The notes below the pieces were generated by a model that made no database searches, was not told the DNA's origin, and was given only the letters and a program-made list of their open reading frames with translations. A stretch of 18,141 nt of DNA from a virus (taxonomy: Duplodnaviria > Heunggongvirae > Uroviricota > Caudoviricetes), in IMG/VR virus record IMGVR_UViG_2534682108_000010, positions 1 through 18,141 of that record; one strand, written 5' to 3'. Below are positions 1 through 16,750 of the stretch, one piece after another (position 1 is the stretch's first letter; each line of letters opens with the position of its first letter). Both the position numbers and the translations under genes were made by a program.

Positions 1-321
1 CGGCTCAGGGCGGTCATAGGTTTCAGGTAACGGCAGCCCTTCGCCAAAAGCCATACCATTGGACTGACCGGCAAGCGCGATCACATAGTAATATTCTGGC
101 GCAACAGAAGGCGCTGAGGTCGTCGGACGGTTGCCTGACTCCTCTGGTGATGAGATGCTCCCCTCACTCACAACTGGCTGGATGAACTCCGCACCATAAC
201 CAGCTGTCGAAATCAGCGCACTACCATAAGGCTGCCACCCTTCCTTCAGTTTTTGAGTTATTCGTTTCGCAAGGTCTGACGGCGACGCCGCCCTGACCAC
301 GTCATAGTGTTTAAATGCCAT
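1..321 (-). CDS. NanS-p-like sialate O-acetylesterase, N-terminal part only (gene continues beyond the window start)
   Basis: Minus-strand ORF starting at ATG 319-321 with GGAGG RBS (rc of 326-330). Translation MAFKHYDVVRAASPSDLAKRITQKLKEGW... then YYYVIALAGQSNGMAFGEGLPLP, which matches the GQSN esterase motif of NanS/YjhS-type enzymes preceded by a DUF1737-like N-terminus, as in Stx-phage nanS-p. Confidence 0.7.
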   Translation of the reverse strand, partial: MAFKHYDVVRAASPSDLAKRITQKLKEGWQPYGSALISTAGYGAEFIQPVVSEGSISSPEESGNRPTTSAPSVAPEYYYVIALAGQSNGMAFGEGLPLPETYDRPEP

Positions 322-409
322 TATTCCTCCCCTTTCCGGGATTTTCCTCAACAGTTGCGGGCCACGGTCCGGCTACACGGAGAATCAAAAGAGGAGAACC
401 GCAGCCCGC

Positions 410-440
410 AAAACGAAAAAGGCCGCGCAGTTGCGCAGCC
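410..440 (-). terminator. Rho-independent terminator (minus strand)
   Basis: On the minus strand: 8-bp stem ggctgcgc/gcgcggcc with tetraloop aact, followed by TTTTTCGTTTT. Confidence 0.6.
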
Positions 441-540
441 TTATCACAGATGGTAAAAATCAGAACACGATAATAAAAATACCTGATGTATATTCATGCG
501 ACCCGCCCGCCACTCACTGAGGGCTTTTTTTTGCCCATAG

Positions 541-567
541 AAAAGCCCCTCCGGAGAGGGGCTTTTT
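541..567. terminator. Bidirectional intrinsic terminator hairpin
   Basis: gcccctc-cgga-gaggggc hairpin at 545-562 flanked by AAAA on one side and TTTTT on the other. Confidence 0.6.
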
Positions 568-1018
568 ACAGTGGTAGTGTAGACAATTTTGCATGGTGCC
601 GGATGCCTCCCGGTGAATTCTGCAATGACCAGACAGAATCCGCAACTTGCCTATACAATACGCAACCAAACATCTGTCATTATGCCCCGCCTCACAGGGG
701 GATTCACCATGCAAAATCATTTTTAACAAAACAGCATGTTATTCTCCAGTACCCGGCATAATGAAATGTGATGTTCTTAGCATTTTTAAAACCCCGAACT
801 TAGTGGTGATTATTTTTATTAGACACCCCTGTTTCACAGTAACTTTATTTTCTGTTTGGGCCACTCTGGCTCAATACTAAAATTATTAATTATCGACAAA
901 AATATAGTAAATAAATAAACAAGTTCCGAGAAAACCAATAACTATCATTGCTAATGCCAGCATAAATAGTTGTTGTGTGTTTATTTTTACGGTAGTGTAT
1001 TCAAAGTGTTGATTCCTG

Positions 1019-1387
1019 TTATCGCAGGTAATATTCCCGCTCAATAAATGTACCAATCACTTTGTCGTGCATTTCTGTGGATTTCGAATACCCCAGAGTT
1101 TTCCGGTTTAGTCGTTTCAGTCTGTTCCTGAGGTTCAGGTTTTCACGTTCGATGCGTTGCGTATAAAGCTTACCTGTGATGTGTTTTTCATTCGGCAATA
1201 TGTCGTAAGCCCGGAAGTTATCTGTACACCAGAAAGCAACATTAAATCCCGATAACCGCTTCAGTAACTGGCGAAATACCTTTTTACTTCGACGACCAAA
1301 AGCATGGGCAACAATACGTTTGAGACGAGGCTCCCATGCATACCACAGCCAGCGCTGTTGCTTTTTATTGCCGACAAATGACCACAT
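1019..1387 (-). CDS. insB: IS1-family transposase InsB-like ORF (normally expressed as an InsAB' frameshift fusion)
   Basis: Translation ...QRWLWYAWEPRLKRIVAHAFGRR...YTQRIERENLNLRNRLKRLNRKTLGYSKS...HDKVIG aligns by eye with IS1 InsB (QRWLFYAYD...[29 protein letters not shown]...HDKVIG), roughly half identical. Confidence 0.7.
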   Translation of the reverse strand: MWSFVGNKKQQRWLWYAWEPRLKRIVAHAFGRRSKKVFRQLLKRLSGFNVAFWCTDNFRAYDILPNEKHITGKLYTQRIERENLNLRNRLKRLNRKTLGYSKSTEMHDKVIGTFIEREYYLR

Positions 1388-1440
1388 CTCATCAACTTCA
1401 CAGATGAGCTGAATTTTCAGGTCATCCAGCGGCAGTGTGG

Positions 1441-1630
1441 TTACACATCGTGGTGCGAGTTTTTTAATGTGCGCACAACGGCATTAATGCTGATATGCAG
1501 CACCCGTGCGGTGTCACGGATGCCCGCATTGTTCATTGCAAGGTCAACAATTTGCTCTTTCATGCCGTGCTGGCAGGCACGATGATTCGGTTTGCCCACA
1601 AAACGGGCATTTTACGTCAACTTTAGCCAT
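1441..1630 (-). pseudogene. insA: insA-like gene of the IS1-family element, apparently frameshifted
   Basis: ATG at 1628-1630 (rc) gives MAKVDVKCPFCGQTE... which stops after 28 codons; the HTH part (...MKEQIVDLAMNNAGIRDTARVLHISINAVVRTLKNSHHDV, stop 1441-1443) is in a different frame. Confidence 0.5.
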
Positions 1631-1751
1631 TCGCAACACTCAGCAAAAGGAGTAATATTACAACATGATCAACACTTTGAATACTTGCCCATTTTTACCG
1701 ATGAAAGGTAACGCAGAAAAATACTCAACATACAGTCCCCATAATCCTCTA

Positions 1752-1827
1752 TGGAGCGGCCAGCTGGAATCGAACCCGCATCATCAGCCTGGAAGGCCGA
1801 GGTAATAGCCATTATACGATGACCTCA
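1752..1827 (-). tRNA. tRNA-Gly(UCC)-like sequence, probable pseudogene
   Basis: D-arm, anticodon arm (loop CTTCCAG, anticodon UCC) and T-loop closely resemble E. coli glyT, but the 5' acceptor strand (tgaggtc) cannot pair with the 3' strand (tggccgc) and the T-stem has a G-A mismatch. Confidence 0.5.
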
Positions 1828-1904
1828 TGGTGCGCCATACTGGATTCGAACCAGTGACCGATTGCTTAGAAGGCAATTGCTCTGTCAGGCCGAGCTAACA
1901 ACGC
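1828..1904 (-). tRNA. tRNA-Arg (anticodon UCU)
   Basis: Hand-folded cloverleaf: acceptor GCGTTGT/ATGGCGC (with G-U pairs), D-stem GCTC/GAGC, anticodon stem ATTGC/GCAAT with loop CTTCTAA, T-arm ACTGG-TTCGAAT-CCAGT, 3' CCA encoded. Confidence 0.85.
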
Positions 1905-1917
1905 TGAATACCGATAA

Positions 1918-1994
1918 TGGACCGCCATCGGGGACTTGAACCCCGCGCAGCCAGCTTCGAAGGCTGGCGCTCTGTCCCGATGAGCTAATGGCGG
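1918..1994 (-). tRNA. tRNA-Arg (anticodon UCG)
   Basis: Perfect acceptor stem CCGCCAT/ATGGCGG, D-stem GCTC/GAGC, anticodon stem CCAGC/GCTGG with loop CTTCGAA, T-arm CGGGG-TTCAAGT-CCCCG, CCA encoded. Confidence 0.85.
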
Positions 1995-2003
1995 TATCTG
2001 ATA

Positions 2004-2079
2004 TGGTGGCCCTTGCTGGATTTGAACCAGCGACCTGGCGATTATGAGTCGCTCGCTCTCACCACTGAGCTAAAGAGCC
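2004..2079 (-). tRNA. tRNA with CAU anticodon, ileX-like (tRNA-Ile2 / Met-type)
   Basis: Acceptor GGCTCTT/AAGGGCC, D-arm GCTC-AGTGGTGA-GAGC, anticodon loop CTCATAA, T-arm GCTGG-TTCAAAT-CCAGC; from the anticodon arm onward it is nearly identical to my recollection of E. coli ileX. Confidence 0.85.
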
Positions 2080-2241
2080 GGGCGCAGGATAATAACGGTA
2101 CGTAACTAATTCTGCAATATCATCCGTTCTGACTGACTAAATTCTGAACTTCCCTGACCGTCTGCTCAAAACGTTCAGTCTCCAGCTCAACACCAGTTGC
2201 ACGACGTCCCAGCGCCATTGCTGCTTTGACGCTACGGACAT

Positions 2242-2270
2242 AAAAAAGCCAGCCACTGGGGGAGGCTGGC
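2242..2270 (-). terminator. Rho-independent terminator (minus strand) between Q and the tRNA array
   Basis: 7-bp stem gccagcc/ggctggc (2248-2270) with a 9-nt loop, followed on the minus strand by TTTTTT (fwd A-run 2242-2247). Confidence 0.6.
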
Positions 2271-2450
2271 AAACTCGTAGAGCAAAATGCTGTTACGCAA
2301 ACTTCGTTACAGGGTTATCCTGTAATACAAAAAATACACAATATTTAGAAAACTAATAGTGCCATATGAGATTTTTAAGATTTTGTTATTAATTGCGGTC
2401 GTACCTTCCTTTCTGTGTACTTTCCGTATAGCTCACAGGATTCTGGGTAC

Positions 2451-2473
2451 AAAAAAACCCGCGCATCGGCGGG
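2451..2473 (-). terminator. Rho-independent terminator about 50 bp downstream of Q (candidate tR')
   Basis: Minus strand: cccgc-cgatgc-gcggg hairpin followed by TTTTTTT. Its position immediately after Q matches the short pR'-tR' transcript of lambdoid phages. Confidence 0.6.
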
Positions 2474-2520
2474 TTCTGCTGCGTGGCAATGTAACCACTC
2501 TTATCATGATATGCAGATTT

Positions 2521-2955
2521 TTACGATCGTAAACTATTTTTTCGCTGATAAAATACAGAGCTTCTCCCTCCCGGCAATTCACGCTCAACATACCGATCCA
2601 TCTCAAGCCTCACTCCCAGCATCATCAGCATGCCTTCAACAATCCCCTCCGCTTTGTGAAGGCGTTTACCTATACAGGTGTCAGAGCACCCATGTTTCCG
2701 TGCCAGCGCCATGAACGTCTCCCCCAACACGTAGTAATCAACCAGCAAGTCATGCAGATCGCGATTGTTCCGGTAAAGGCGGGCTACGCACCCGCATATC
2801 ACCATCGCATCATCGTCACAACATTGCGGGCGAGATTTTACTTTTGAAGGAATTAATCCCTTAAAACCGGCGGCAATGGACGACCAGGTCACATCTTCAT
2901 GATTATTAGCCGCCCACGCTCCCCAACGCTCAAGAACCATCTGAATATCACGCAT
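2521..2955 (-). CDS. Late-gene antiterminator Q
   Basis: Translation [38 protein letters not shown]... with a Cys-rich region, recognised as a lambdoid Q-family protein; GGAG RBS 8 nt upstream of ATG 2953-2955; the ORF-track start at 2970 is a TTG. Confidence 0.85.
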
Positions 2956-3040
2956 CAACTTACTCCACAAAACTCAGACCAGAACGCCAATTACAAGCAA
3001 AAATCAACAAAACAGTATTAGTTGATTGTTATCTCTGACT

Positions 3041-3181
3041 TCATACTCCTGCTCCTGTCAGTGTTTTGGCGTAATTCTTCAGTATTCGGTAATCGGTCAA
3101 AACAGAACCGGGGAAACGATATAAGCGCAGACGCCCCCAGCGGTGGCGAAGAAGTTCTGCCATATTAAACTCAAACATCAT
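3041..3181 (-). CDS. ylcG: Small nin-region protein, YlcG-like (46 aa)
   Basis: [49 protein letters not shown], with ATG overlapping the rusA stop (ATGA coupling); same position as DLP12 ylcG between rusA and Q. Confidence 0.6.
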
Positions 3182-3540
3182 TCATTCCCCATTTCGGTGA
3201 TGGTCAGTTCCAGCCTCCCACCTTTGGTAACAGGCATCTTCACAACGCGGTAATCAACGACCTGAGCATCATCCAGCCAGAAACCTGCTTTAGTGAGTGC
3301 GTCAAAAGCGGCTTTTTGCAGATTATCCAGGTCACGGCGACGGCGATCCGGCATGTGGCACTCAATGCGGATTTTCACAGGCATAGCCAGGCCGATATCC
3401 AGCATTGCGTTTTTAATGATTCGGGCGACGTTATCGCGGTATGCCTGCCCCTCTGCACTGACGTGCGTGCGCCCGCGATTATGGCGGTAATAGCGATTAT
3501 TGCTCGGAGGCCAGGGTAATGTGATACTGTAGGTATTCAC
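3178..3540 (-). CDS. rusA: Holliday-junction resolvase RusA
   Basis: Translation [42 protein letters not shown]... recognised as RusA; GTG start overlapping the upstream stop. Confidence 0.9.
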
Positions 3541-3827
3541 GCCTTAATAACCCCCTCTTTCAGCCAGATAACCTGTGTTCTCGCCATACCTTCCAGCGCG
3601 CATTCTTTTGCATATGCAGCATCGACAAAATGTGTGCGGCGGTCGATTTCGTCGTGGCAGGCAGAACATGCAATGGTGGCAATCAGGTCTGGCGGTTTGA
3701 TACCGGTACCGCACAATCCAGCCAGCCGGATATGTGCCAGTACAGACGTTTCAGAATTGCCATTACATACGCCAGGGATTCTTACCTGGCATTCCCGACC
3801 ACGCGCTGCTTTTCTCAAATCAGCCAT
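3537..3827 (-). CDS. ybcO: DUF1364-family nin-region protein (YbcO-like)
   Basis: Translation [47 protein letters not shown]...CSACHDEID... recognised as YbcO-like; ATG at 3825-3827 overlaps the ninE stop. Confidence 0.8.
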
Positions 3828-3990
3828 GATTCCTCCTTGCTGCCAGTCGCAACCATTTTTTATCAACCAGGCTAGCGGTATATCCGAGCAGTGTTGGTAT
3901 TTCGGATGGCTTCAGCTCAGGCTTACGCTTACGACGATTTGATACTCTGTAGATGTGTCCGTTCATGACACGAATAAGCGGTGTAGCCAT
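3820..3990 (-). CDS. ninE: NinE-like small protein (56 aa)
   Basis: [59 protein letters not shown]. The C-terminal ...YTASLVDKKWLRLAARR resembles lambda NinE (...YTAHLWDIRWLRRRAR); ATG overlaps the ybcN stop. Confidence 0.6.
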   Translation of the reverse strand: MATPLIRVMNGHIYRVSNRRKRKPELKPSEIPTLLGYTASLVDKKWLRLAARRNHG

Positions 3991-4445
3991 TACGCCTCCT
4001 GCTTGTCACGGAGCTGCTGGAACTCGCAGCTCTGCGGAATAGTCAGATGGCAACCAATATTCATCGCCCAGGCTTCAACCTTACACAGGAAGACATACAT
4101 CTCTCCGGTATCAAGATCGGAGGTATGGCGTAACGACTGGATAGTGGTGATATCACCGGTTACGACATCAACCAGGTCTTTGGTTTCATAACCGAGATAT
4201 GTGTGTTTGAGAGCATCTTTTACCCAAGCTGGAGTGGCGAACGTTTTACCCCTGCTGATGAGGTATTCACTGATTTCGCTGTACCACATGTGGCTGAGTG
4301 CATTCTGGGAAAGACTGCGTTTCTCACGCCACGGTTTAAGCACCATGCGAAAGCATTTGCCTTCCTCCAGATAAGGCTGGATCTGCTGGCCGATAGCGGT
4401 GAAGTTACCACGATGCAATTTGATGCCGTCTTGTGGGAGGTTCAC
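3990..4445 (-). CDS. ybcN: YbcN/NinB-family protein
   Basis: 151-aa ORF with GTG start preceded by GGAGG; the motif [20 protein letters not shown] resembles the NinB RNRSLDQNRKLW region; position and length match DLP12 ybcN. Confidence 0.65.
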
Positions 4446-4478
4446 GCTTCACCTCCGCAGAGGTCAAACGCTGGATGC

Positions 4479-4563
4479 AAAAAATCGCAGGTGCATCTCT
4501 GCATCTGTGAAGGGAGAAGAGAGTTTGGATTGTATGTGCGCATAAACGTCCCCGTTTAGCGCA
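4479..4563. repeat. 85-bp direct repeat, copy A
   Basis: 80 of 85 positions identical to 6413-6497; contains a palindromic hairpin tgcgcataaacg-tccc-cgtttagcgca (10-bp stem with 1-nt bulge, tetraloop). Confidence 0.85.
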
Positions 4564-4639
4564 GAAGTCACCGGAGTTGTTCAAGCTCCAATGGCATGAT
4601 TATGGCTGGTTGATTATTGGAAATCAAATGTGCTGAAAA

Positions 4640-5149
4640 TTAGTCTGCCAAGTCTTCCTCAGTCGCAACTGGGTAATTCCAAATATCAAAAAAAGCTATA
4701 GCCTCCTGCCATTTGCTCCATAAGTTATCAAGTACTTGTGTAGGTTCCGTACTTTTAAAAACAGAATCAGCCGCATCACCGTTATGAACTTCCTCGTACA
4801 GTTCCATTATTAGCAGATTAACAAAGTACTGTTTCAACATTAATGCCTGATTACCTTCTTTCTGCTGGCTATCCTGCTTGATGAGCTCCATCGCCCGTAC
4901 TAGGCACCTGATGATATCCGCTGCATCATTAACGCTCCATTCAGATCCGCGCTTATCTTTAGCTGATGAATTGGCTCTCTCAGCGCAAGCCTTTAAAGAC
5001 TCATAAAGGTAAACTCTATTTTGTAGCTGCAGCGCTTTTTTTGACGTGCACCAACTTGCAAGCGCCGACCCCGCTGCGGCTAATGTGCCAAACGCAGAAA
5101 TGCCTGCTGCTATTGCACTTAAGTCGGCACTGTCAAAGTTCCACATCAT
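4640..5149 (-). CDS. Hypothetical protein with hydrophobic N-terminal segment (putative membrane anchor)
   Basis: 169-aa ORF, ATG with AGGTG RBS; N-terminus LSAIAAGISAFGTLAAAGSALASW is hydrophobic; AT-rich; no family recognised. Confidence 0.5.
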   Translation of the reverse strand: MMWNFDSADLSAIAAGISAFGTLAAAGSALASWCTSKKALQLQNRVYLYESLKACAERANSSAKDKRGSEWSVNDAADIIRCLVRAMELIKQDSQQKEGNQALMLKQYFVNLLIMELYEEVHNGDAADSVFKSTEPTQVLDNLWSKWQEAIAFFDIWNYPVATEEDLAD

Positions 5150-5384
5150 CGTTACACCTTATATAAACACCCCTCAGTAATATCCAATAAGGTATGTGAA
5201 CAATCAATATAATTTATATCCGTATCGGCACATAGCGATTTTAATGCTACTGATAATGGTATCTTTTAGATTATATCGTCCAGTTCCAGTACCCGTATTT
5301 TATGAAATGGACTCGCACATTACCAAAAAAAATGCCAGCACTTCCGTCATCGCAGAATGCTGGCAGTATTTCTAACTAGTGACT

Positions 5385-5993
5385 TTATTGCAACAGATTC
5401 TGACGGAAATATGGTAACACACGACTCCACTTATCATCCTGCCACGGTTGGAATTTTACATGCGCCGTTTCTCTGGCAAGGATTTCTCGCGCCCTGTTGA
5501 GTATCCGAGGATATTCTTGTTCGATTGAAGTGAATCTACCTGCTTCGCGATGCTCTGCGACCTGAAGAAGGGGCGTAACGTTCTGGCAGGCGGTTAACAT
5601 CGTATCACTTGCTCGCCATAACCAGGCGAGTGTGCAAAGTTCGTTATCAGTGAATTGTTTTGTGATTGGGGATTGTTGAACTTCTCGATCGAGAATATCC
5701 AGAACCCAGCGGCGGAATTCTTTGGCCACAGGAGTACGAGCAAACATGGCGATCAAATGGGCTCCGCGAAGGCTAAATACTCGAGACTCCTGCATTCCAC
5801 GAGGGGTGGTCACTTTGACCACCCTTGTCATCATATCTGTGAATTCATCCGAGTGCCGAGAGTAAATGCGCTGAACTGCTTTATCGTCCGCATATTCCAG
5901 TGCTAAACCAACTTCAGTGGCAGTAAGCCAAATTCTGTTATTGTGGCAAATCGGGGTAAACGTCGTTTTGTGGAATGCTAATTGAGTAGTCAT
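5385..5993 (-). CDS. Bro-N domain protein (antirepressor / Roi-like)
   Basis: N-terminal region FHKTTFTPICHNNRIWLTATEVGLALEYADDKAV...RVFSLRGAHLIAMFARTPVAKEFRRWVLDIL matches the Bro-N pattern; ATG with GAGGTG RBS. Confidence 0.7.
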   Translation of the reverse strand: MTTQLAFHKTTFTPICHNNRIWLTATEVGLALEYADDKAVQRIYSRHSDEFTDMMTRVVKVTTPRGMQESRVFSLRGAHLIAMFARTPVAKEFRRWVLDILDREVQQSPITKQFTDNELCTLAWLWRASDTMLTACQNVTPLLQVAEHREAGRFTSIEQEYPRILNRAREILARETAHVKFQPWQDDKWSRVLPYFRQNLLQ

Positions 5994-6149
5994 AGTATCA
6001 CCTCATCAGGTTAACCATCACCACCAACGACGCCAATCGACTGGTGGTGAACTGTGTAAGGTTGGCGTAACCGGCTACTCAAACCCGGCGCTTCCGAAGA
6101 AGCCCTCACACAGCCCACCATAATTTGGGCATAGCCGTGCTTAGCGCAC

Positions 6150-6170
6150 AAAAAAACCGCTTAACGCGGT
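6150..6170 (-). terminator. Possible rho-independent terminator (minus strand)
   Basis: Minus strand: accgc-gttaa-gcggt hairpin followed by TTTTTTT. Confidence 0.45.
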
Positions 6171-6412
6171 ATGCGTTGAGTAGTATCCCGGGACGCCAAT
6201 CCCGTGTGCCGATTTTGCGGCAACGCACAGAATATAGCGCCGGATAAATCATGTCGTCAACCCCAGTAAATGGACACCATGATGATCACAGCCATAGCTG
6301 CTACAACAGTTACAACTACCTCAGGCCAAAACATAACGATTTCCATATCACCTTTAGCCGCCAGACGAATAGAGACTCCCAATTCTGGCTGTCGAAGTAA
6401 AACACCGAATGT

Positions 6413-6497
6413 AAAAAATCGTAGGTGCATTTCTGCATCTGTGAATGGAGATGAGAGTTTGGATTGTGTGTGCGCATAAACGTCCCCGTTTAGCGCA
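6413..6497. repeat. 85-bp direct repeat, copy B
   Basis: 80 of 85 positions identical to 4479-4563, with the same internal hairpin. Confidence 0.85.
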
Positions 6498-6805
6498 ACC
6501 CCACCACCGGGTGTTCAGGCCGACAGTAACTATATTATTCCCTACTGATTTTTGAAAATCAAAGGTCTTTATACGTCACACGAGAGCAAATATTTCCGAA
6601 GAAGAAACCTTTCGCCTTGAAAGGATAAAGAGTTCATTTCATAAATTGAAATATTCAATAAGAATATTGCAAAAAATGAAATTATTTACTAGCGAGTCTA
6701 TCTAACTGATAATTATGAAGATTGTAAGCGGTAGCAATCACCCGCATACACATTGAACAGGATTTAATACAAAACGTCTTAAATTGTCCGTAAGGAATAG
6801 CACGA

Positions 6806-8308
6806 ATGACTCAAACTCCTCTATTACTTGCAATCATATTTTTATTGGTTGTTCTTGTTCTTTATATAGCTGCAATCAAACGCATCAAAAAAATACAATT
6901 AGAATTAAGTGATAGCAATCAAAAAAATGAAGAATACAAATCTCGCTTTGCAGATTATTTTAATGTAGAAGAAGAATGTAAGAAGCTTATTGAGAAAACA
7001 GAGCAAGAATGCTCCATAATAAAAGAAGAATCCCTAAAAGTAAAAGAAAATGCCAATAATGAACTAACAAACACCATTGAAAAAATGGATGGTATCAATA
7101 AACAAATCCAAGAGCTAAGAAGAACTTATAAAGAGAAGAAAGAAATATATGATAAACTAGTAAGGCAAATTTCTATTTATTCAGAAGATGTTGAGCTAGC
7201 CGAACTAGGATTTTACGAACCTCATTTTAATTTTGAAGATTCAGAGCAATTTAAAAACAAAATAAAATCCATCAGGGATGAACAGAAATTAATGCTGCGG
7301 GATAAAACCCACTCTGGCGCAGTATATTGTACAACCCAATGGACTGTTGAAGGCTCTCGAGCAGAGGGTAAAAAAATGACAGACAGAAATATCAGGCTAA
7401 CTACTAGAGCATTTAATAATGAATGTGATGCTGCAATTAGCAATTGCACGTGGAAAAACATCACTAAAATGGAAGAACGCATCACAAAGGCATTTGAGGC
7501 CATAAATAAACTAAACGAGCAAAATCACATATATATAAACACTAAATACCTCAATAAAAAACTTGAGGAATTGTGGCTTACCCATGAATATCGTGAGCAA
7601 AAACAGAAAGAAAAAGAAGAACAGGCAGAAATAAGGGCACAAATGAGAGAGGAGGAGCGTGCACAACGAGAAATAGAAAAGGCCATGCAAGACGCAGAGG
7701 CAGAAGAGCGCCGTTATAAAAAAGCAATTGAAGCTGCAAGAAAGGAAATGGAAAAAGTTACTGGTGACATGAAGCAGCGCCTCGAAAATCGCATTGCCGA
7801 ACTAGAACAGAGTTTGTCGCAGGCTGAATCAAAGCATCAAAGAGCATTATCCATGGCACAACAAACCAAACAAGGTCATGTTTATATTATTTCGAACATA
7901 GGTTCTTTTGGGGAGAATGTTTATAAAATAGGCATGACACGACGTCTTGATCCGCAAGACCGTGTAAATGAGCTCGGTGATGCATCTGTTCCTTTTATTT
8001 TTGATGTACATGCCATGATTTATTCGGAGGACGCTCCATCATTAGAAAAAAAACTACATGATGTCTTCGATAAAAAGAGAGTCAATCTTGTAAATCGTAG
8101 AAAAGAGTTTTTCTATGTTACTCTGGATGAGATCAAAGAAGCTGTTAAAAAACACTCTGATTCAGAAATTGAATTTATTGAGACAGCAGTCGCAAAAGAC
8201 TTTAATGAGTCATTGGCTATTCGTAATCATGAAAATAAAAAAAGTGACAACAGCAACTCATCAATTATACCTGAGCGAAAAATCCCAGAGTTTGCAGATG
8301 CAATTTAA
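6806..8308 (+). CDS. Membrane-anchored coiled-coil protein with C-terminal T5orf172 (GIY-YIG-like) domain, DUF4041-type architecture; candidate accessory/defence gene
   Basis: 500-aa ORF, ATG with AAGGA RBS; N-terminal hydrophobic helix LLLAIIFLLVVLVLYIAAI; long K/E-rich predicted coiled-coil; C-terminal GHVYIISNIGSFGENVYKIGMTRRLDPQDRVNELGDASVPFIFDVHAMIYSEDAPSLEKKLHDVFDKKRVN...EFFYV, recalled as the T5orf172 pattern; visibly AT-rich; opposite strand to all neighbouring genes. Confidence 0.8.
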   Translation: MTQTPLLLAIIFLLVVLVLYIAAIKRIKKIQLELSDSNQKNEEYKSRFADYFNVEEECKKLIEKTEQECSIIKEESLKVKENANNELTNTIEKMDGINKQIQELRRTYKEKKEIYDKLVRQISIYSEDVELAELGFYEPHFNFEDSEQFKNKIKSIRDEQKLMLRDKTHSGAVYCTTQWTVEGSRAEGKKMTDRNIRLTTRAFNNECDAAISNCTWKNITKMEERITKAFEAINKLNEQNHIYINTKYLNKKLEELWLTHEYREQKQKEKEEQAEIRAQMREEERAQREIEKAMQDAEAEERRYKKAIEAARKEMEKVTGDMKQRLENRIAELEQSLSQAESKHQRALSMAQQTKQGHVYIISNIGSFGENVYKIGMTRRLDPQDRVNELGDASVPFIFDVHAMIYSEDAPSLEKKLHDVFDKKRVNLVNRRKEFFYVTLDEIKEAVKKHSDSEIEFIETAVAKDFNESLAIRNHENKKSDNSNSSIIPERKIPEFADAI

Positions 8309-8556
8309 TTAATTTGTAGTAGCAATAAAGCAGGCATCGTTGAGAATATTTTGTCAGCGATGCTTACTTCTCTAACAAAAACGGTGATTACCAACGAACT
8401 AACGGACTTCAGGTAATCATAAGACAAATGGAACGACTCTCCGGTGATTAGATCCCTGCAATAACAGTAATTTTCTACTAACTGAAAAATCTTTAACTGC
8501 CGCTCCTATTTCTAAGCTGACTGCTAGATTACATGGTGTGTTACCGATGAAAACCG

Positions 8557-8859
8557 TCACAGCAAGTTTAAGTTCATATCTCCATACACTGCCAACACTC
8601 GTTTCATCGCGGCACTCTGGCGACACTCCTTGAAAATCAGATTCGTGCTCACCTTTCCTTCCCGTTCTTCCCTGGTAGCGAAGCGGTAATACACCGTTCG
8701 CCAGACCTTACCATCAATGACTAAGATTCCTGCCCGTGCCATTTTAGCCGCAGCCTGATTTATACTGGTTACTGTTGCGCCTGTTACCGCAGCAACGTCC
8801 TGCGCACAGAAGCTCTTATGCGTCCCCAGGTAATGAATAATTGCCTCTTTGCCCGTCAT
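8557..8859 (-). CDS. ren: Ren-like protein
   Basis: Translation MTGKEAIIHYLGTHKSFCAQDVAAVTGATVTSINQAAAKMARAGILVIDGKVWRTVYYRFATREEREGK... recognised as lambda Ren; ATG overlaps the P stop. Confidence 0.8.
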   Translation of the reverse strand: MTGKEAIIHYLGTHKSFCAQDVAAVTGATVTSINQAAAKMARAGILVIDGKVWRTVYYRFATREEREGKVSTNLIFKECRQSAAMKRVLAVYGDMNLNLL

Positions 8860-9557
8860 ACAGTTGCTCCTTTCAGTCCGAACTTCGCTTTGATTTCTGC
8901 GATCTTCGCCAGAGCCTGTGCACGATTTAGAGGTCTACCGCCCATGACAGGAAGTTGTTTTACTGGTTCAGGTATAGCCTCACCACGGTTAATTCGTGCG
9001 GTCATACAGGACAGTTCATCGGCAGCCTTGCGCCGTAATTCCGCGTCAGTCAACGCATTGGTCCGCATGTTCTGGTACAGGTTGGTAACCAACCAGTAGT
9101 GCGCGTTTGATTTCCACGGATAAGACTCTGCGTCCGGATACAGGCCACGCTTCCGGCAATACTCGTAAACCATATCAACCAGCTCGCTGGCGTTTGGCAG
9201 CCCGGCGGTAACGGATGCTTCTTCCCGGCACCAGGCAACAAACTGCCCGGGTGATGGCAGGAATGGTCGATTCTGCCGACGGGCTACGCGCATTCCTGCG
9301 TTAACCTGTTCCATTGTGGTGATCCCGTTTTCCCGGAAAGCCAGAACCCACTGGCGGCGGATTTCGTTCAGTTCGTTCTGATCCCGGTTAGCCAGGCTCG
9401 CAGGGAAAGTTGCCAGTAACTGGCTGAACACACCGTTGATGATCTGCGCTACCTGCTGTACCTGCGGCTTTTCGTCGTACTGTTCCGGCATATTGTTGGC
9501 GATCCGGCGCATCTGCTCACGGTCAAAGTTAATCATCTGTGCGGCGATGTTTTTCAT
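8856..9557 (-). CDS. P: Replication protein P (DnaB helicase loader)
   Basis: 233-aa translation MKNIAAQMINFDREQMRRIANNMPEQYDEKPQVQQVAQIINGVFSQLLATF... essentially identical to lambda P as I recall it. Confidence 0.95.
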   Translation of the reverse strand: MKNIAAQMINFDREQMRRIANNMPEQYDEKPQVQQVAQIINGVFSQLLATFPASLANRDQNELNEIRRQWVLAFRENGITTMEQVNAGMRVARRQNRPFLPSPGQFVAWCREEASVTAGLPNASELVDMVYEYCRKRGLYPDAESYPWKSNAHYWLVTNLYQNMRTNALTDAELRRKAADELSCMTARINRGEAIPEPVKQLPVMGGRPLNRAQALAKIAEIKAKFGLKGATV

Positions 9558-10483
9558 AGATCCACCCCGTAAATCCAGTCTGTGTTTGTCAGGTCGAGTT
9601 TTGGTTTTCCGGCTGTCACGCCAGCCTGTTGTTTGTTACGGTTGATTTCGAGTTGGGTCCACTTGTCGCGAAGTTTGGCCGGGCTCAGCACGTTACCAGA
9701 CCAAAAGTTGTCCTGGCATGCCCAGCGGAACAGCATGCACATGTCGCGGTGGTTACGTCCGTCACGTTCACGCATCAGGCGGATATCGTTAGCCCACCCT
9801 GCAAAATTCGGTTTTCTGGCTGATGGCGCGATGGTCTTCACCATGTCAAACATCCACTCTGCGGCGGTCAGGTCTTCTGCTGTCCCCCACCTGCTGCCGC
9901 TCTGAATTGCAGCATCTGGTTTCTCCACAGGAAGATCGTTTTCTGGTTGGTCAGAGGATTCGCCAGAATTCTCGGACGAAAAAGGTTTTATATTGTCTTT
10001 TGTTAGTTTGTCTTTTGTGTTTACCTGATTCGGGTAAACGCCTTTACCTGATTTGGGTAAACTTTTCTTACCTGATTCAGGTAAATTTACCTCTTTCAGG
10101 TAAACTTTATTTTTCTTACCTGATTCGGGTAATGTTGACCATTCACTGACCAAATTATTAATGCCGATATTCCGCCCGCTCTGAATAAGAATCCCACGCT
10201 TTACCAGAACGCTTTTTGCAGCAGAACACTTGTGCGGCAATATCCCGGTCAATTCGGAAAGTTGCTCGTTGCTCACCCAATCCAGTTTTTTATTAAAGCC
10301 ATATGTTTTGCGCATGACAGCCAGGAAGACCAGAAGCTGGTGCTGTGTTAATCCGGCCAGCATCACAGCTTCCAGCAACTCATTTGCAATGCGCGTATAA
10401 CCATCATCGAGATCTGCCACGCGCGGCTCCTTTTGTGCCACATCCGGCACTGGAAAATTGAATATCTCAGCAGTGTTTGCCAT
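9554..10483 (-). CDS. O: Replication initiator O
   Basis: From ATG 10481-10483 (GGGAGG RBS): MANTAEIFNFPVPDVAQKEPRVADLDDGYTRIANELLEA... resembles the lambda O N-terminus; the iteron array lies inside the ORF; the in-frame extension to 10573 in the ORF track is probably not used. Confidence 0.85.
   Translation of the reverse strand: MANTAEIFNFPVPDVAQKEPRVADLDDGYTRIANELLEAVMLAGLTQHQLLVFLAVMRKTYGFNKKLDWVSNEQLSELTGILPHKCSAAKSVLVKRGILIQSGRNIGINNLVSEWSTLPESGKKNKVYLKEVNLPESGKKSLPKSGKGVYPNQVNTKDKLTKDNIKPFSSENSGESSDQPENDLPVEKPDAAIQSGSRWGTAEDLTAAEWMFDMVKTIAPSARKPNFAGWANDIRLMRERDGRNHRDMCMLFRWACQDNFWSGNVLSPAKLRDKWTQLEINRNKQQAGVTAGKPKLDLTNTDWIYGVDL
10021..10133. repeat. Replication origin: five 18-19-bp iterons plus adjacent AT-rich segment (9961-10020)
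   Basis: Repeats ttacctgattcgggtaaa / ttacctgatttgggtaaa / ttacctgattcaggtaaat / ttacctctttcaggtaaac / ttacctgattcgggtaat inside the O gene, followed in O-sense by an AT-rich stretch; this matches lambda-type ori organisation. Confidence 0.85.
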
Positions 10484-10569
10484 AATTCCTCCCGCAATGA
10501 GTGTGTTACGATTTGCACCTGAAAGTCGGTTCTGTTCGCGCAGACCGGCTTTCGCCATTTCTGAACCTG

Positions 10570-11115
10570 TCATATTGCCCCCAGCATGGTGGTGACCATC
10601 GCCATCAGTGGACCAGCCAAATCCGGGTCCACACGAAACATCGACACAATGCCTTCACTCATCTCCTTCAGTTTCTGGTGGCGTGGTGCGTTGAGAATGA
10701 CAGCCTGTTTTGCCTCACTGAGTTCCTTTTCCATTTCAGCCAGCCGAGCCATGAAGCTATCCTGCTCAACCAGGTGGCCGCGATATTTCAGCGGTAGTAC
10801 TGCCAGAATTGCTGGAGTCAGTTCACGCACGTTATTTCGGTATTTTTCAGAATCGAATTTGTTATCGAGAAAGCGGAACAGCTTCTGGCGTGCACGACTG
10901 ACATCATCAGAAAAATCGATAGTGCCGCCGCCCTGTGCTCGATACTCATTCACAATGAGTGCGGCAACGACATCCTGATTATCTACAGCCGACCAGGCGC
11001 GGATGGCATCACGGATTTTTTCGTGGCCTGGCACCTGTTTTATTTGAGAACGATTTATCACCGCAGTCGGGATAAATCCGCTAGTCTGTTGGTATGTAAG
11101 TGGTTGCATAGTCAT
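10570..11115 (-). CDS. YdaT / CII-like early regulatory protein (Phage_CP76-type)
   Basis: 181-aa ORF between the Cro-like gene and O (the cII position); assignment from position and size, with weak recollection of YdaT-type proteins. Confidence 0.55.
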   Translation of the reverse strand: MTMQPLTYQQTSGFIPTAVINRSQIKQVPGHEKIRDAIRAWSAVDNQDVVAALIVNEYRAQGGGTIDFSDDVSRARQKLFRFLDNKFDSEKYRNNVRELTPAILAVLPLKYRGHLVEQDSFMARLAEMEKELSEAKQAVILNAPRHQKLKEMSEGIVSMFRVDPDLAGPLMAMVTTMLGAI

Positions 11116-11139
11116 TGCCTTATCAGTTAACGCCGCAGT

Positions 11140-11367
11140 TTAGGCGGCAGAATTACTCGCGTTAAACAATGGTGCGAGGTCGGGACGAATATCTGCTGGT
11201 TTAATCTTTCCACCAGTGGCTGAGACAATTTTCATTACATAGCGGGCATCAATTCCGCCACCGTGTAGCCAACGCCAAACAGTGGGTTGGGCTACACCGC
11301 ATAGATCTGCCAGTCGTTTTTGACTACCTGTAATACTGATTGCGAGTTGAATGGTTTGATTTGTCAT
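11140..11367 (-). CDS. Cro-like HTH regulator (YdaS-type)
   Basis: Small ORF MTNQTIQLAISITGSQKRLADLCGVAQPTVWRWLHGG... with HTH; divergent from the CI-like repressor; ATG 11365-11367 with AGGA RBS. Confidence 0.7.
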   Translation of the reverse strand: MTNQTIQLAISITGSQKRLADLCGVAQPTVWRWLHGGGIDARYVMKIVSATGGKIKPADIRPDLAPLFNASNSAA

Positions 11368-11477
11368 TATCAATTCCTATTGGTATTGCAATGAATGAAT
11401 AATAGCAATGCGTATTAATCCAAGCAATAGCAAAACGTGTTTTGACCATCAATACGCAAGCGTATAAATTAAAACTT
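11368..11477. promoter_or_regulatory. Immunity control region (OR-like): divergent promoters and operator repeats
   Basis: Minus-strand promoter TTGCTT-17 bp-TATTAT (-10 at 11399-11404, rc) for the Cro-like gene; plus-strand TTGACC (11442-11447)-15 bp-TATAAA (11463-11468) just upstream of the repressor ATG (11478), so the leader is very short; repeated AATAGCAAT/TATTGC motifs and a 14-bp palindrome ATACGCAAGCGTAT. Confidence 0.6.
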
Positions 11478-12170
11478 ATGAAAAAAGAAACTCTTGCTGA
11501 TCGCTTAAACCTAGCGATGGAACAATCTGGAATGTCTCAAGGCGCTCTTGCAAAGGCGTCTGGCGTAGCTCAACCCACAATCTGGAGACTGACAAGCGGC
11601 AACGCGCGCGGCTCAACAAAAATTGTTGAAATAGCTAATGCATTGGGTGTTCGAACAGAATGGCTCTCATCAGGCATAGGCCCGATGAGAAATGACGGTC
11701 AACAATCAGGGAAGCCTGCTGTCAGCCATTCCAAATACTTCAAAATTGACGTTCTTGATATAGAAGTCAGTGCCGGGCCGGGTGTAATCAACCGTGAGTT
11801 TGTAGAAGTTCTACGCTCGGTTGAGTACTCGTTTGACGATGCTCGTCACATGTTCGATGGCAGGAAGGCGGAAAATATCCGCATCATTAACGTGCGTGGT
11901 GACAGCATGTCAGGAACGATCGAACCAGGTGATCTGCTGTTCGTTGATATCACGGTTAAATCTTTCGACGGTGATGGTATCTATGCGTTTCTGTACGACG
12001 ACACAGCCCATGTAAAGCGTCTGCAAATGATGAAGGATAAGCTGCTGGTTATCTCTGATAACAAGAGCTACTCACCGTGGGACCCGATCGAGAAAGACGA
12101 GATGAACCGGGTGTTCATCTTCGGTAAGGTTATTGGGAGCATGCCGCAGACGTATAGGAAGCATGGGTAG
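11478..12170 (+). CDS. CI-like repressor (HTH plus S24 LexA-like autopeptidase domain)
   Basis: From ATG 11478: MKKETLADRLNLAMEQSGMSQGALAKASGVAQPTIWRL... (HTH); C-terminal VRGDSMSGTIEPGD and HVKRL recalled as the S24 Ser/Lys pattern; the ORF-track start at 11442 is a TTG. Confidence 0.85.
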   Translation: MKKETLADRLNLAMEQSGMSQGALAKASGVAQPTIWRLTSGNARGSTKIVEIANALGVRTEWLSSGIGPMRNDGQQSGKPAVSHSKYFKIDVLDIEVSAGPGVINREFVEVLRSVEYSFDDARHMFDGRKAENIRIINVRGDSMSGTIEPGDLLFVDITVKSFDGDGIYAFLYDDTAHVKRLQMMKDKLLVISDNKSYSPWDPIEKDEMNRVFIFGKVIGSMPQTYRKHG

Positions 12171-12216
12171 CGGATTAGCTAATCATTATGATGTTGTTCA
12201 AATTTAAGAGGTCCGC

Positions 12217-13065
12217 ATGTCTTCGATTTGGGGAAAAAAGTTGATGACGAAAGAACAAGAGTCAAACACTGATGAAGTGAAACCAGAGCAAGGAAGTTTG
12301 TTTGAATTAGAATTTCATGAATATACACCTTCAAGCTTAGGCACAGCACACCTTTCTGGTTTCGCTATTGCCACTGATGAAATGGAATATGCAGTTAAAA
12401 GCATGCGCTCCACCCCACCTTTTCCTGTACAAAACCCAACTCAAGTACCGGCAGCGGAATGGTTTTGCACAAATTTAGCTGAAAAATGCGGCATCGCTAC
12501 ACCTGTGTGCAAAATTCTCAAGTGTATTGCTAATGGGGAGTATGTTTTTGGCTCTCGCATAGAGTTTTCAGCCTGGAAATCTGGTCTCAATAGTCCTCAA
12601 TGGATAAATTTGCTCTCAAATGCTTCTGAATCCTTAAAGAAGCAACTCTGGGCAATTTATGCATTTGATCAGTTTGTATATAACATTGACAGACACCTCA
12701 ACAACTACTTATACATGGAAAACACCCGAGGCAATGTTATAGTTAAAACATTCGATTTTAGTCTAAGCTCTTTTGTTATAGGCTGGCCACGAAATACCCC
12801 TCATATACTACCAACAGACTCCAGTACAACAACAAACTGGACGATTGCTAAACAATTCATTGGCGACACTGATGATCTGAGAAAGTGCGCATTATCTGTC
12901 CTTGACAAAATTGAAAAAATTGGAGTTGAGGCTATATCTGATATACTTAACTCTATGCCTGAAGCATGGATGCCACCAATGCATAAGGAGTATTTTTTGA
13001 AGTGGTGGGACAGCGAGGAGCGAATCGATAGGCTAAATGCCATAAGACTGGAGATAACATCTTGA
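12217..13065 (+). CDS. Hypothetical protein with kinase-like catalytic-loop motif (HipA / PI3-PI4-kinase-like); candidate defence gene A
   Basis: 282-aa ORF 46 bp downstream of the repressor, AAGAGG RBS; motif NIDRHLNN followed 21 residues later by FDFS resembles the N-x-D-x-H-x-x-N ... D catalytic pattern of HipA-type kinases; AT-rich. Confidence 0.75.
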   Translation: MSSIWGKKLMTKEQESNTDEVKPEQGSLFELEFHEYTPSSLGTAHLSGFAIATDEMEYAVKSMRSTPPFPVQNPTQVPAAEWFCTNLAEKCGIATPVCKILKCIANGEYVFGSRIEFSAWKSGLNSPQWINLLSNASESLKKQLWAIYAFDQFVYNIDRHLNNYLYMENTRGNVIVKTFDFSLSSFVIGWPRNTPHILPTDSSTTTNWTIAKQFIGDTDDLRKCALSVLDKIEKIGVEAISDILNSMPEAWMPPMHKEYFLKWWDSEERIDRLNAIRLEITS

Positions 13066-13868
13066 AAACTTTCAAATACAGCTTAATCAGAGTTACACCG
13101 AACTTAGAGAAAGGTGAAACGATTAACGTTGGTTTGATCGTTTACCATGACTCTGACATAGACGTACGTATGCTCAATTCAGTTTCAAAACTTAAAGCGA
13201 TTGACAAAGATCTTACCTTAGATTACTTAGAGGATCTTTCGACCTCGCTTTTTGATTTGTCACAAAAAATCAACAATGCTGAACTTCTTCCTTGTCTTTT
13301 TAAGGGAGCATTATCGTTATCGTCATTTGGCATGTTCACTCTTCAAGCCAACGAAGATTACGAAGCTAAAGTTACTGATCTAATGAATCGGTTAGTAAAC
13401 CCACAAAAACAGCCACATAAACAGTTGAAAAAAAAGGTTTTTTCTGAATTAAAATCCACCTTTATACAACATGGAATTTTCAGTAAGTATTTTGAAGATC
13501 TTTCCCAACATAAAATCGTAGCTAATTATCCAATTAGTAATGAAGAAGGGTTAGTTGCAGATTTTTTGTTAAAAAATGGCAAATACCATCTTACAGAAAC
13601 ATTAGATTTTCGTTCTGAAAATATAAAAAAACAAATGGGTGAAGCTGCGATAAGTGTTTTAACAATTACTAAAGCCTACGAATTATACAATTCAAATATT
13701 GATTCATTTGTAATTTTTGCCGCTGAAACGACAGCACAAGAAAAGTCAGCAAAACAGCAGCTAAATCTACTGGAAAAACACGCTGATAATCTTATCAACG
13801 CATATAGCAAAGAAGACATGCGTTCATATTACGAAAAGATGCTGAATGCTGCCTCTATGTTACAGTAG
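13062..13868 (+). CDS. Hypothetical protein, partner of the kinase-like gene; candidate defence gene B
   Basis: 268-aa ORF whose TTG start overlaps the upstream stop (TTGA), GGAG RBS 8 nt upstream; N-terminus MKTFKYSLIRVTPNLEKGETINVGLIVYHD; followed by terminator 13896-13922; AT-rich. Confidence 0.75.
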   Translation: MKTFKYSLIRVTPNLEKGETINVGLIVYHDSDIDVRMLNSVSKLKAIDKDLTLDYLEDLSTSLFDLSQKINNAELLPCLFKGALSLSSFGMFTLQANEDYEAKVTDLMNRLVNPQKQPHKQLKKKVFSELKSTFIQHGIFSKYFEDLSQHKIVANYPISNEEGLVADFLLKNGKYHLTETLDFRSENIKKQMGEAAISVLTITKAYELYNSNIDSFVIFAAETTAQEKSAKQQLNLLEKHADNLINAYSKEDMRSYYEKMLNAASMLQ

Positions 13869-13895
13869 AAAAAACTGACTAATTTAATTAATAAC

Positions 13896-13922
13896 CCGGC
13901 CACCGTGCCGGGTTTTCTTTTG
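13896..13922 (+). terminator. Rho-independent terminator ending the repressor operon
   Basis: cccggc-caccgt-gccggg hairpin followed by TTTTCTTTT. Confidence 0.7.
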
Positions 13923-14039
13923 TCCCCTCCCCTCATCACACACCGCTCAAAAAACCACCACATCCCTGCTTCAGTTATCGCTATGCGATGCAAGTCACAA
14001 AATTAATTCTTTTTGCTATCAAACATTTAATATCAAAAC

Positions 14040-14095
14040 ACATCAGTCAATAGCAATAAGTATTGATATCACCAATAGCAATAGCTATTATCACC
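14040..14095 (+). promoter_or_regulatory. pL-like early-left promoter with operator repeats (OL-like)
   Basis: TTGATA (14060-14065)-17 bp-TATTAT (14083-14088) on the plus strand; AATAGCAAT motifs (as in the OR region) overlap the spacer, and TATCACC occurs twice. Confidence 0.6.
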
Positions 14096-14368
14096 ATATC
14101 GCAACAACACAACGATACGGCAACCACCTGATTCACCGTTGCGATGACCGCTTAGATCCGCAGTTTGAATTTCAGCAGGCTTCGGGGAGTGCGAGGGGTG
14201 AAACGGACGCGTGAACGTCGGTGTGACCAGCTGAAATTAACTCAACATTTCATACCTCAGTCGCTTCAACGAGGCGGCTTAGTTATGACAACCGGCGGCC
14301 ATCCACCGCCTGAATACGCGCAGAAGTCTCTATATGTTCAGCAGCCCAGCTTACGGGCAGGAGTTTTT

Positions 14369-14575
14369 ATGGTTCATCAACATTACGGAACACAGACCGT
14401 TAATCGCGGCGCGGTCATGCCAGGAATGCTGGTCAAACACAAAGATGGTACCTGGACTGCATCAGCTAATTTACGCGGACGGCTTTATCTGCATCGCGGC
14501 ATCGAGCGCACTTATACCCGTGATTTGCTCGTAGAAGTTTTTCTCGACGGACGCGGTAACGGCCTGAATCACTAA
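14369..14575 (+). CDS. Hypothetical early-left protein in the kil position (start uncertain; alternative ATG at 14285)
   Basis: ATG 14369 preceded by AGGAG with 5-nt spacer; ends just upstream of gam; no family recognised. Confidence 0.45.
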   Translation: MVHQHYGTQTVNRGAVMPGMLVKHKDGTWTASANLRGRLYLHRGIERTYTRDLLVEVFLDGRGNGLNH

Positions 14576-14651
14576 CCCCCCTTTCCTGTTTTCCTAATCA
14601 GCCTGGCATTTCGCGGGCGATATTTTCACAGCCATTTTCAGGAGTTCAGCC

Positions 14652-14948
14652 ATGAACGCTTATTACATTCAGGATCGTCTTAAGGCTCAGAGCTGGGCGC
14701 GTCACTACCAGCAGATCGCCCGTGAAGAGAAAGAGGCAGAACTGGCAGACGACATGGAAAAAGGTCTGCCCCAGCACCTGTTTGAATCACTCTGCATCGA
14801 TCATTTGCAACGTCACGGGGCCAGCAAAAAAGCCATTACCCGTGCGTTTGATGACGATGTTGAGTTTCAGGAGCGCATGGCAGAACACATCCGGTACATG
14901 GTTGAAACCATTGCTCACCACCAGGTTGATATTGATTCAGAGGTATAA
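14652..14948 (+). CDS. gam: Gam, short form (host RecBCD inhibitor)
   Basis: 98-aa translation [60 protein letters not shown]... matches the C-terminal 98 aa of lambda Gam; AGGAG RBS. Confidence 0.9.
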
Positions 14949-14953
14949 AACGG

Positions 14954-15739
14954 ATGAGTACAGCACTCGCAACGCTGGCTGGGAAGCTGGCTGAACGTGT
15001 CGGCATGGATTCTGTCGACCCACAGGAACTGATCACCACTCTTCGCCAGACAGCATTTAAAGGCGATGCCAGCGATGCGCAGTTCATCGCATTGTTGATC
15101 GTTGCCAACCAGTACGGCCTTAATCCGTGGACGAAAGAAATTTACGCCTTCCCTGATAAGCAGAACGGCATCGTTCCGGTGGTGGGCGTTGATGGCTGGT
15201 CCCGCATTATCAATGAAAACCAGCAGTTTGATGGCATGGACTTTGAGCAGGACAATGAGTCCTGTACATGCCGGATTTACCGCAAAGATCGCAATCACCC
15301 GATCTGCGTTACCGAGTGGATGGATGAATGTCGCCGCGCACCATTCAAAACCCGCGAAGGCAGAGAAATCACCGGACCGTGGCAGTCGCATCCCAAACGG
15401 ATGTTACGGCACAAAGCCATGATTCAGTGTGCTCGCCTGGCCTTCGGATTTGCTGGCATCTATGACAAGGATGAAGCCGAGCGTATTGTCGAAAATACTG
15501 CATATACTACAGAACGTCAGCCGGAACGCGACATCACCCCGGTTAACGAAGAAACCATGTCGGAAATTAACGCCCTTCTTACTTCCATGGAAAAAACGTG
15601 GGATGACGACCTGTTGCCGCTCTGTTCCCAGATTTTTCGCCGCAACATTTACACATCTTCAGAACTAACACAGGCTGAAGCTGTGAAGGTTCTTGGATTC
15701 CTGAAACAGAAAGTCACAGAGCAGAAGGTAGCAGCATGA
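14954..15739 (+). CDS. bet: Bet (Red-beta) single-strand annealing recombinase
   Basis: 261-aa translation [66 protein letters not shown]... essentially identical to lambda Bet as recalled. Confidence 0.95.
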
Positions 15740-16416
15740 CACCGGACATTATCCTGCAACGTACAGGGATCGACGTGAGAGCTGTCGAACAGGGGGATGA
15801 TGCGTGGCACAAATTACGGCTCGGCGTCATCACCGCTTCAGAAGTTCACAACGTGATAGCAAAACCCCGCTCAGGAAAGAAATGGCCTGACATGAAAATG
15901 TCCTACTTCCACACCCTGCTTGCTGAGGTTTGCACCGGTGTGGCTCCGGAAGTTAATGCCAAAGCACTGGCCTGGGGAAAACAATACGAGAACGACGCCA
16001 GAGTCCTGTTTGAGTTCACCTCCGGCGTGAATGTTACTGAATCCCCGATTATCTATCGCGACGAAAGTATGCGTACAGCCTGCTCTCCCGATGGTTTATG
16101 CAGTGACGGCAACGGCCTTGAACTGAAATGCCCGTTTACCTCCCGGGATTTCATGAGGTTCCGGCTCGGTGGTTTCGAGGCCATAAAATCGGCTTACATG
16201 GCCCAGGTGCAGTACAGCATGTGGGTGACACGAAAAGATGCCTGGTACTTTGCCAACTATGACCCGCGTATGAAGCGTGAAGGCCTGCATTATGTCGTGA
16301 TTGAGCGGGATGAAAAATACATGGCTGGTTTTGACGAAATGGTGCCAGAGTTCATCGAAAAAATGGACGAGGCACTGGCTGAAATTGGTTTTGTATTTGG
16401 GGAGCAATGGCGATAG
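15736..16416 (+). CDS. exo: Exo (Red-alpha) 5'-3' exonuclease
   Basis: 226-aa translation [69 protein letters not shown]... matches lambda Exo; start overlaps the bet stop. Confidence 0.95.
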
Positions 16417-16464
16417 CCAGTAGCAACGAGGTGCAAATGATATGACAATTAAGGAATACTACCG

Positions 16465-16716
16465 GTGTTCGTTCTAATCCAGCGCGGGCAGTCTTTCGTC
16501 GATGCCAACAACTATCCGGTTGAAGTCTGCAAAATCACTCTGACGCAGGTAATCTTCCGCAGGCTGGATGGGAGAACCAGAGCCGCTTCAATTAGCGCAT
16601 TTAATGCAGAATTTGAGCGAATCGATCACAACGAACTACACATGATTAAAGCAGAAATTGAGAAGGAAAAGCATATTGCCAGCCTTCGAAAAATGCGCCG
16701 CATATCAATCAACTGA
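16465..16716 (+). CDS. Hypothetical protein (GTG start)
   Basis: 83-aa ORF between exo and xis with AAGGA about 9 nt upstream of GTG; no family recognised. Confidence 0.4.
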   Translation: MFVLIQRGQSFVDANNYPVEVCKITLTQVIFRRLDGRTRAASISAFNAEFERIDHNELHMIKAEIEKEKHIASLRKMRRISIN

Positions 16717-16750
16717 CAACCGCCTTCGGGCGGTTTTTAATGGCGAAAAT

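Follow-up and report, generated by a model that had tools for sequence, protein, structure and literature searches.

IS1, which is represented in E. coli and Shigella by IS1A and its iso-forms, encodes a protein, InsA, that represses the element promoter and binds the element ends, together with a DDE transposase, InsAB', that is produced by frameshifting at an A6C motif; its target duplications are 8 or 9 bp long (PMC12903888). According to the passage of that source which cites Ohta et al. 2004, end binding depends on both zinc finger and HTH. Here we describe a 700-bp element of the IS1 family, with the gene order insA to insB' on the minus strand, in an 18,141-nucleotide stretch of DNA (IMG/VR record IMGVR_UViG_2534682108_000010, positions 1 to 18,141; hereafter the window). 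The coordinates of its parts are collected in Table 1. We consider it very probable that an IS1-family element transposed into a lambdoid prophage, that insA subsequently decayed in place, and that the copy is now inert. The copy is already publicly annotated, its RefSeq entry being a pseudogene, 'IS1 family transposase, frameshifted'.

Table 1. Features of the IS1-family element in the window and location of an intact parent copy.
Feature	Position	Strand	Remarks
Left target-site duplication copy	983..990	.	8-bp ATTTTTAC; repeat finder D2
Right target-site duplication copy	1691..1698	.	8-bp ATTTTTAC; repeat finder D2
IS1-family element, deletion derivative of the 786/787-bp parent	991..1690	-	700 bp
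IRR, insB'-distal terminal inverted repeat	991..1013	.	19/23 positions pair with the other end
IRL, insA-proximal terminal inverted repeat	1668..1690	.	12/23 positions identical to IS1A IRL
insA 5' remnant, 28 codons and stop	1544..1630	-	C8 and C11 kept; out of frame past codon 16
Junction of the 86-bp internal deletion	1583..1584	-	break between 1584 and 1583
insA 3' remnant, HTH-coding	1441..1599	-	GTG start; frame differs from the ATG frame
A6C programmed -1 frameshift motif, AAAAAAC	1459..1465	-	intact
insB' reading frame, DDE catalytic domain	1019..1483	-	open, 154 codons
787-bp parent copy	NZ_CP128591.1 165042-165828		

The element is bounded by 23-bp imperfect terminal inverted repeats, GGGCAAGTATTCAAAGTGTTGAT and GGTAGTGTATTCAAAGTGTTGAT, which enclose a perfect 17-bp core, GTATTCAAAGTGTTGAT (repeat finder I2), and the octamer ATTTTTAC directly abuts both of its ends. 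When the two flanks were joined and queried against complete E. coli genomes, related prophages of E. coli A8 and 2012C-4221 were found to have an empty site (...GTGTGTTTATTTTTACCGATGAAAGG...) with a single ATTTTTAC. The duplication is therefore a real footprint of transposition rather than a chance repeat.

The host region is a lambdoid prophage, with annotated integrase, exo/bet/gam, repressor region, replication genes, nin region, rusA and Q. Over all overlapping bases the window is identical to contig JH953788.1 of E. coli 3006, and three SNPs and a single mosaic patch (76-267) set it apart from the chromosomal sequence of E. coli O157:H16 Res13-Lact-PEA12-26. This patch lies in the 5' portion of the sialate O-acetylesterase gene, includes a 9-bp indel and is identical in E. 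coli 3006, but both Res13-Lact-PEA12-26 and the contig that bears the full-length allele described below have a different sequence there; it points to recombination among prophages sharing the insertion. After Q come four tRNA genes, the element, the sialate O-acetylesterase gene and the lysis genes; the element thus lies in the late operon, about 60 bp downstream of tRNA-Gly, and is oriented as late transcription. The tRNA-Gly gene (tcc; 1752-1826, minus strand), which was predicted by ARAGORN and adjoins two tRNA-Arg genes and a tRNA with a CAT anticodon, is annotated in A8 and 2012C-4221 and missing from the RefSeq annotation of NZ_CP062876.1. On the other side of the element there is a strongly hydrophobic ORF of 25 codons (886-963, minus strand; MLALAMIVIGFLGTCLFIYYIFVDN) whose ATG is 20 nt from the duplication; with respect to late transcription the element lies immediately upstream of this ORF, and some related records have a 'hypothetical protein' annotated around this position. 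Between Q and the tRNA genes, 2120-2233 (minus strand) is a RefSeq pseudogene, the remnant of a site-specific DNA methyltransferase gene that is full length at the matching position in the empty-site relatives. Among the early and accessory genes there are a DUF4041 gene (6806-8308) and a DUF3037 gene that forms a pair with a hypothetical gene (12244-13065 and 13062-13868), which are possibly accessory or defence cargo. The insertion site corresponds to the position of stx in Stx phages. The idea that stx was lost from the site through the IS was dropped: nothing links the two, and the empty-site relatives are likewise without annotated toxin genes there.

The lesion of the window copy is an 86-bp internal deletion in insA, the size of which was obtained by alignment to the plasmid copy of the parent and by reconstruction from the full-length allele found at the same site; when 86 bp are removed from the latter, the window element is recovered except for one mismatch. 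The segment that is absent, GGTTAAAAAG...GATTACGCTT, corresponds to about codons 17-45 and includes C32 and C35, the second Cys pair, and the junction reads GGGCAAACCGAATCATCGTGCCTGCC. Microhomology was considered, as ATCG occurs near both breakpoints, yet the junction (GAATC followed by ATCGTG) keeps both copies and is blunt. Since 86 is not divisible by three, translation from the ATG at 1630 reaches a stop after 28 codons, giving the product MAKVDVKCPFCGQTESSCLPARHERANC. With half of the ribbon deleted, this 5' remnant scores 18.2 bits against the Pfam profile Zn_ribbon_InsA, below the cut-off of 26.1. The HTH is encoded in another frame than the zinc-ribbon part and is recognized there by HTH_Tnp_IS1 (E = 4.7e-18, 65 bits); no recognizable Shine-Dalgarno-like sequence is present upstream of the GTG with which that frame could begin. 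Further downstream, InsB' matches positions 2-130 of the 131 of DDE_Tnp_IS1 (PF03400; E = 2e-49) and differs from the plasmid copy by a single residue, L instead of F, and L is also what the Pantoea and Klebsiella relatives have. In the 5' untranslated part, a T-run is T4 in the window copy and T5 in the plasmid copy.

The parent is known from 787-bp copies (99.3% identical) on the E. coli plasmids p12A2, CP057892 and AP042479 and on one food-metagenome contig, all of which occupy one identical plasmid site. Its InsA is a protein of 91 aa, MAKVDVKCPFCGQTESVKKHGQGKAKHQRYRCQMCSRTFQLDYAYRACQHGMKEQIVDLAMNNAGIRDTARALHISINAVVRTLKNSHHDV, with Cys residues at 8, 11, 32 and 35. The frameshift site TTAAAAAAC is in phase with insA, a -1 shift leads to a 232-aa InsAB', and PGAP labels the intact copy 'programmed frameshift'. 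InsAB' of the parent scores 256 bits against the NCBIfam profile for IS1 family transposases, NF033558 (cut-off 100), and the parent also passes the Pfam cut-offs for PF03811 Zn_ribbon_InsA (41.2 bits), PF12759 HTH_Tnp_IS1 (60.2 bits) and PF03400 DDE_Tnp_IS1. The window copy is thus a member of the IS1 family: it has imperfect inverted repeats and an 8-bp duplication, a DDE domain that is detected in its own InsB' by PF03400 and in the parent by NF033558, and an intact A6C motif at which, from the phase in the parent and the PGAP label, frameshifting is predicted. An element-level name was not found in the sources checked, which go no further than 'IS1 family transposase' or 'IS1-like element transposase'. 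A lead to IS1661 of Yersinia pestis as a relative was abandoned, as PMC1940323 places IS1661 under IS3 (in one table row, IS21) and never under IS1. These results bear out every qualitative claim of a sequence-only reading of the same DNA, in which an IS1-family element had been recognized from its IS1-like inverted repeats and a duplication attributed to genuine transposition, insB' and the A6C motif had been taken as intact, and insA as disrupted, through loss of an internal segment not divisible by three, at a point between its first Cys pair and its HTH. The length of about 700 bp given there was also right, but the deficit of about 68 bp, counted against the 768 bp of IS1, has to be replaced by 86 bp, counted against the 786/787-bp parent.

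The order of events can be read from the alleles at the insertion site. In a survey of contigs encoding exactly the InsB ORF of the window, 18 contigs were read and at least 10 loci listed. The identical 700-bp element occupies the insertion site in four of the listed loci, namely E. coli 3006, GCA_015673845.1 and two ENA metagenome assemblies; in one of the four, the surrounding prophage differs in its early region. Another five (GCA_900479555.1 and four Logan assemblies) have a full-length element of 786 bp at this site, with the same flanks and the same duplication, which also shares with the window copy the T4 run and the other differences from the plasmid element. As full-length and deleted alleles are found at one site with the same duplication, there was one insertion, and the deletion took place afterwards, in situ. 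All five full-length alleles (contig L009, 2612-3397, and contigs L015-L018) carry a CAG to TAG change at insA codon 33 (Q33*), a codon that falls inside the segment removed by the 86-bp deletion. Judging from its reading frames, the insertion is therefore defective in both lineages, through either Q33* or the 86-bp deletion; had Q33* been present already at the time of insertion, transposase would have been needed in trans. The tenth listed locus, on Logan contig L014 (1-2446), consists of an Rhs C-terminal toxin context joined to a right half of the window type with prophage flank, and the left end of the element is a variant about 10 nt shorter, GGTCAAGTATTCAA-CGTTG. It may be an assembly chimera formed through the repeat or a product of recombination between two copies, and it was kept out of the evidence.

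That the 787-bp lineage has transposed repeatedly, with 8-bp duplications, follows from the presence of intact copies encoding the 91-aa InsA at no fewer than four unrelated sites, namely the plasmid insJ/IS66 site, a site between type II secretion genes, one beside an IS3-family element and tibC, and one beside a TPP-dependent enzyme gene. The second of these is an intact copy between the pilotin gene and gspC (contig L100, 1111-1897), flanked by the 8-bp duplication CGAAAAAT. This octamer resembles the duplication of the window when the latter is written in the orientation of the element, GTAAAAAT, a similarity that may reflect a preference for target sequences rich in A. The history of the window copy began with the transposition of a 786-bp element into an AT-rich intergenic site of the late region, flanked on one side by the tRNA cluster that follows the antiterminator gene Q and on the other by the sialate O-acetylesterase and lysis genes, with duplication of the 8 bp ATTTTTAC. 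By analogy with IS1, InsA, with its zinc ribbon and HTH, would have repressed the element and bound its ends, and a -1 ribosomal frameshift at the A6C motif would have fused it to the DDE domain of InsB' to form the 232-aa transposase. The lineage of the window then lost 86 bp of insA, and with them half of the zinc ribbon and the reading frame, so that neither InsA nor InsAB' can any longer be made from this copy; the sister lineage has remained full length and bears the stop at codon 33. From this, from the lack of a further copy in the one complete genome that carries the allele, and from the confinement of the deleted form to this site among the copies recovered, we infer that the window copy has lost the ability to transpose and is an inert fossil. 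Since its ends are intact, it could in principle be moved in trans, for which a transposase of the IS1A type would be an unlikely helper given the divergent ends.

Three other explanations were weighed against decay in place, beginning with the possibility that insA only seems broken, through an error of sequencing or assembly, and that the real element is intact. The sequence-only reading had raised this by proposing a homopolymer or read error near 1585-1600, and the one-nucleotide difference in the T-run would fit such an error. However, the T4 run lies outside the coding sequence and is common to the full-length allele at the same site, and the lesion in insA is not a homopolymer slip at all but a deletion of 86 bp. 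The identical 700-bp sequence moreover recurs in no fewer than five assemblies that are independent of one another, one of them a complete genome (Res13-Lact-PEA12-26, in addition to the four loci of the survey), and is thus not a sequencing error; we regard the chance that the real element is intact as practically nil. It is also very improbable that the element was already 700 bp long when it inserted, as a MITE-like, non-autonomous derivative mobilized in trans by an intact copy. Such a derivative would have both inverted repeats and a clean duplication, as observed, and the intact copies on E. coli plasmids could have provided the transposase, but this would not account for a 786-bp allele that has the same site, the same duplication and the same copy-specific differences from the plasmid element. 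A MITE-like form should in addition be found at several sites with different duplications, whereas every 700-bp copy recovered, from complete genomes and the loci listed, is at this one site. Counted in complete E. coli genomes, the element occupies a single place in each, and this holds for the one complete genome that carries the 700-bp allele. Scans with an exact 24-mer from beside the deletion gave no match in genome contigs and viral contigs, and in metagenome contigs only one intact copy of the plasmid type.

A copy that is still functional could be imagined if translation started at the GTG at 1599 and, after a -1 frameshift, yielded an N-terminally truncated transposase composed of the HTH and InsB'. 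The frame from 1599 to 1441 is indeed open, covers the HTH and extends into the A6C motif, and the insB' frame is open throughout. The lack of a Shine-Dalgarno-like sequence before the GTG speaks against such a protein, as do the requirement for both zinc finger and HTH in the binding of the IS1 ends, in the statement cited above from PMC12903888, and the fact that no second insertion of the 700-bp form was found among the copies recovered. We therefore hold it to be very unlikely that the window copy makes a working transposase, and retain decay in place followed by inactivity as the explanation of the locus.

One may go further and suppose that the two lesions in insA do not reflect neutral decay but selection to silence InsA and InsAB' in a Q-antiterminated late operon and, separately, that the 786/787-bp lineage is an E. 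coli member of the IS1 family, uncatalogued and recently active, whose insertions duplicate 8 bp at (G/C)nAAAAAT-like targets; we would put these forward as unlikely speculations. What the locus offers is a clean and fully resolved case of IS decay, in which the empty site and both the full-length and the deleted allele of one insertion event are at hand, and a record in E. coli of a rarely seen IS1-family lineage. The insertion could also be used to mark the lineage of O157:H16-type strains that have this prophage. Its significance is otherwise small, and it bears on no open question.

Compared with IS1, the parent has the same organization: its imperfect ends measure about 23 bp, starting with GG and ending with TGAT, InsA (91 aa) combines a Cys4 zinc ribbon with an HTH, the frameshift site is TTAAAAAAC, and InsAB' (232 aa) contains a DDE domain; the 8-bp duplication is one of the two sizes known for IS1. 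It is nevertheless not an iso-IS1, for which close identity and interchangeable ends would be expected. Its InsB' part shares only 45% amino-acid identity with that of the IS1A copy carried by the same plasmid, in agreement with the earlier estimate, made by eye, of a diverged relative about half identical to IS1; the ends agree at 12 of 23 positions; blastn of the parent element against IS1A gives no significant nucleotide similarity; and the parent measures 786/787 bp instead of 768 bp. PGAP, too, gives the neighbouring IS1A an element-level name, whereas the parent is named at the family level only. Much closer are unnamed IS1-family elements on IncF plasmids of Klebsiella pneumoniae (e.g. 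pKP007) and on pPant2 of Pantoea vagans, with about 82% nucleotide identity over the element, the same ends (GGnCAAGTATTCAA...TTGAATACnnnACC), the same A6C site and a similar length, and further relatives occur in Serratia, Xenorhabdus and other Enterobacterales, with protein identities of up to 89% (Serratia microhaemolytica). In all close relatives, which come from plasmids of E. coli and from Klebsiella and Pantoea, insA is a normal gene of 91 codons, in which the 86 bp missing from the window copy are present, so that the broken arrangement is not, as it might have been, that of a close relative. The known elements that the window copy itself resembles most are the decayed IS copies, or IS pseudogenes, of prophages. 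Like these, it is confined to a single site and has intact ends around an internally broken transposase gene, with a sister allele at the same site that bears a different lesion; no feature of it is unusual among them, and it is a case of ordinary IS decay.
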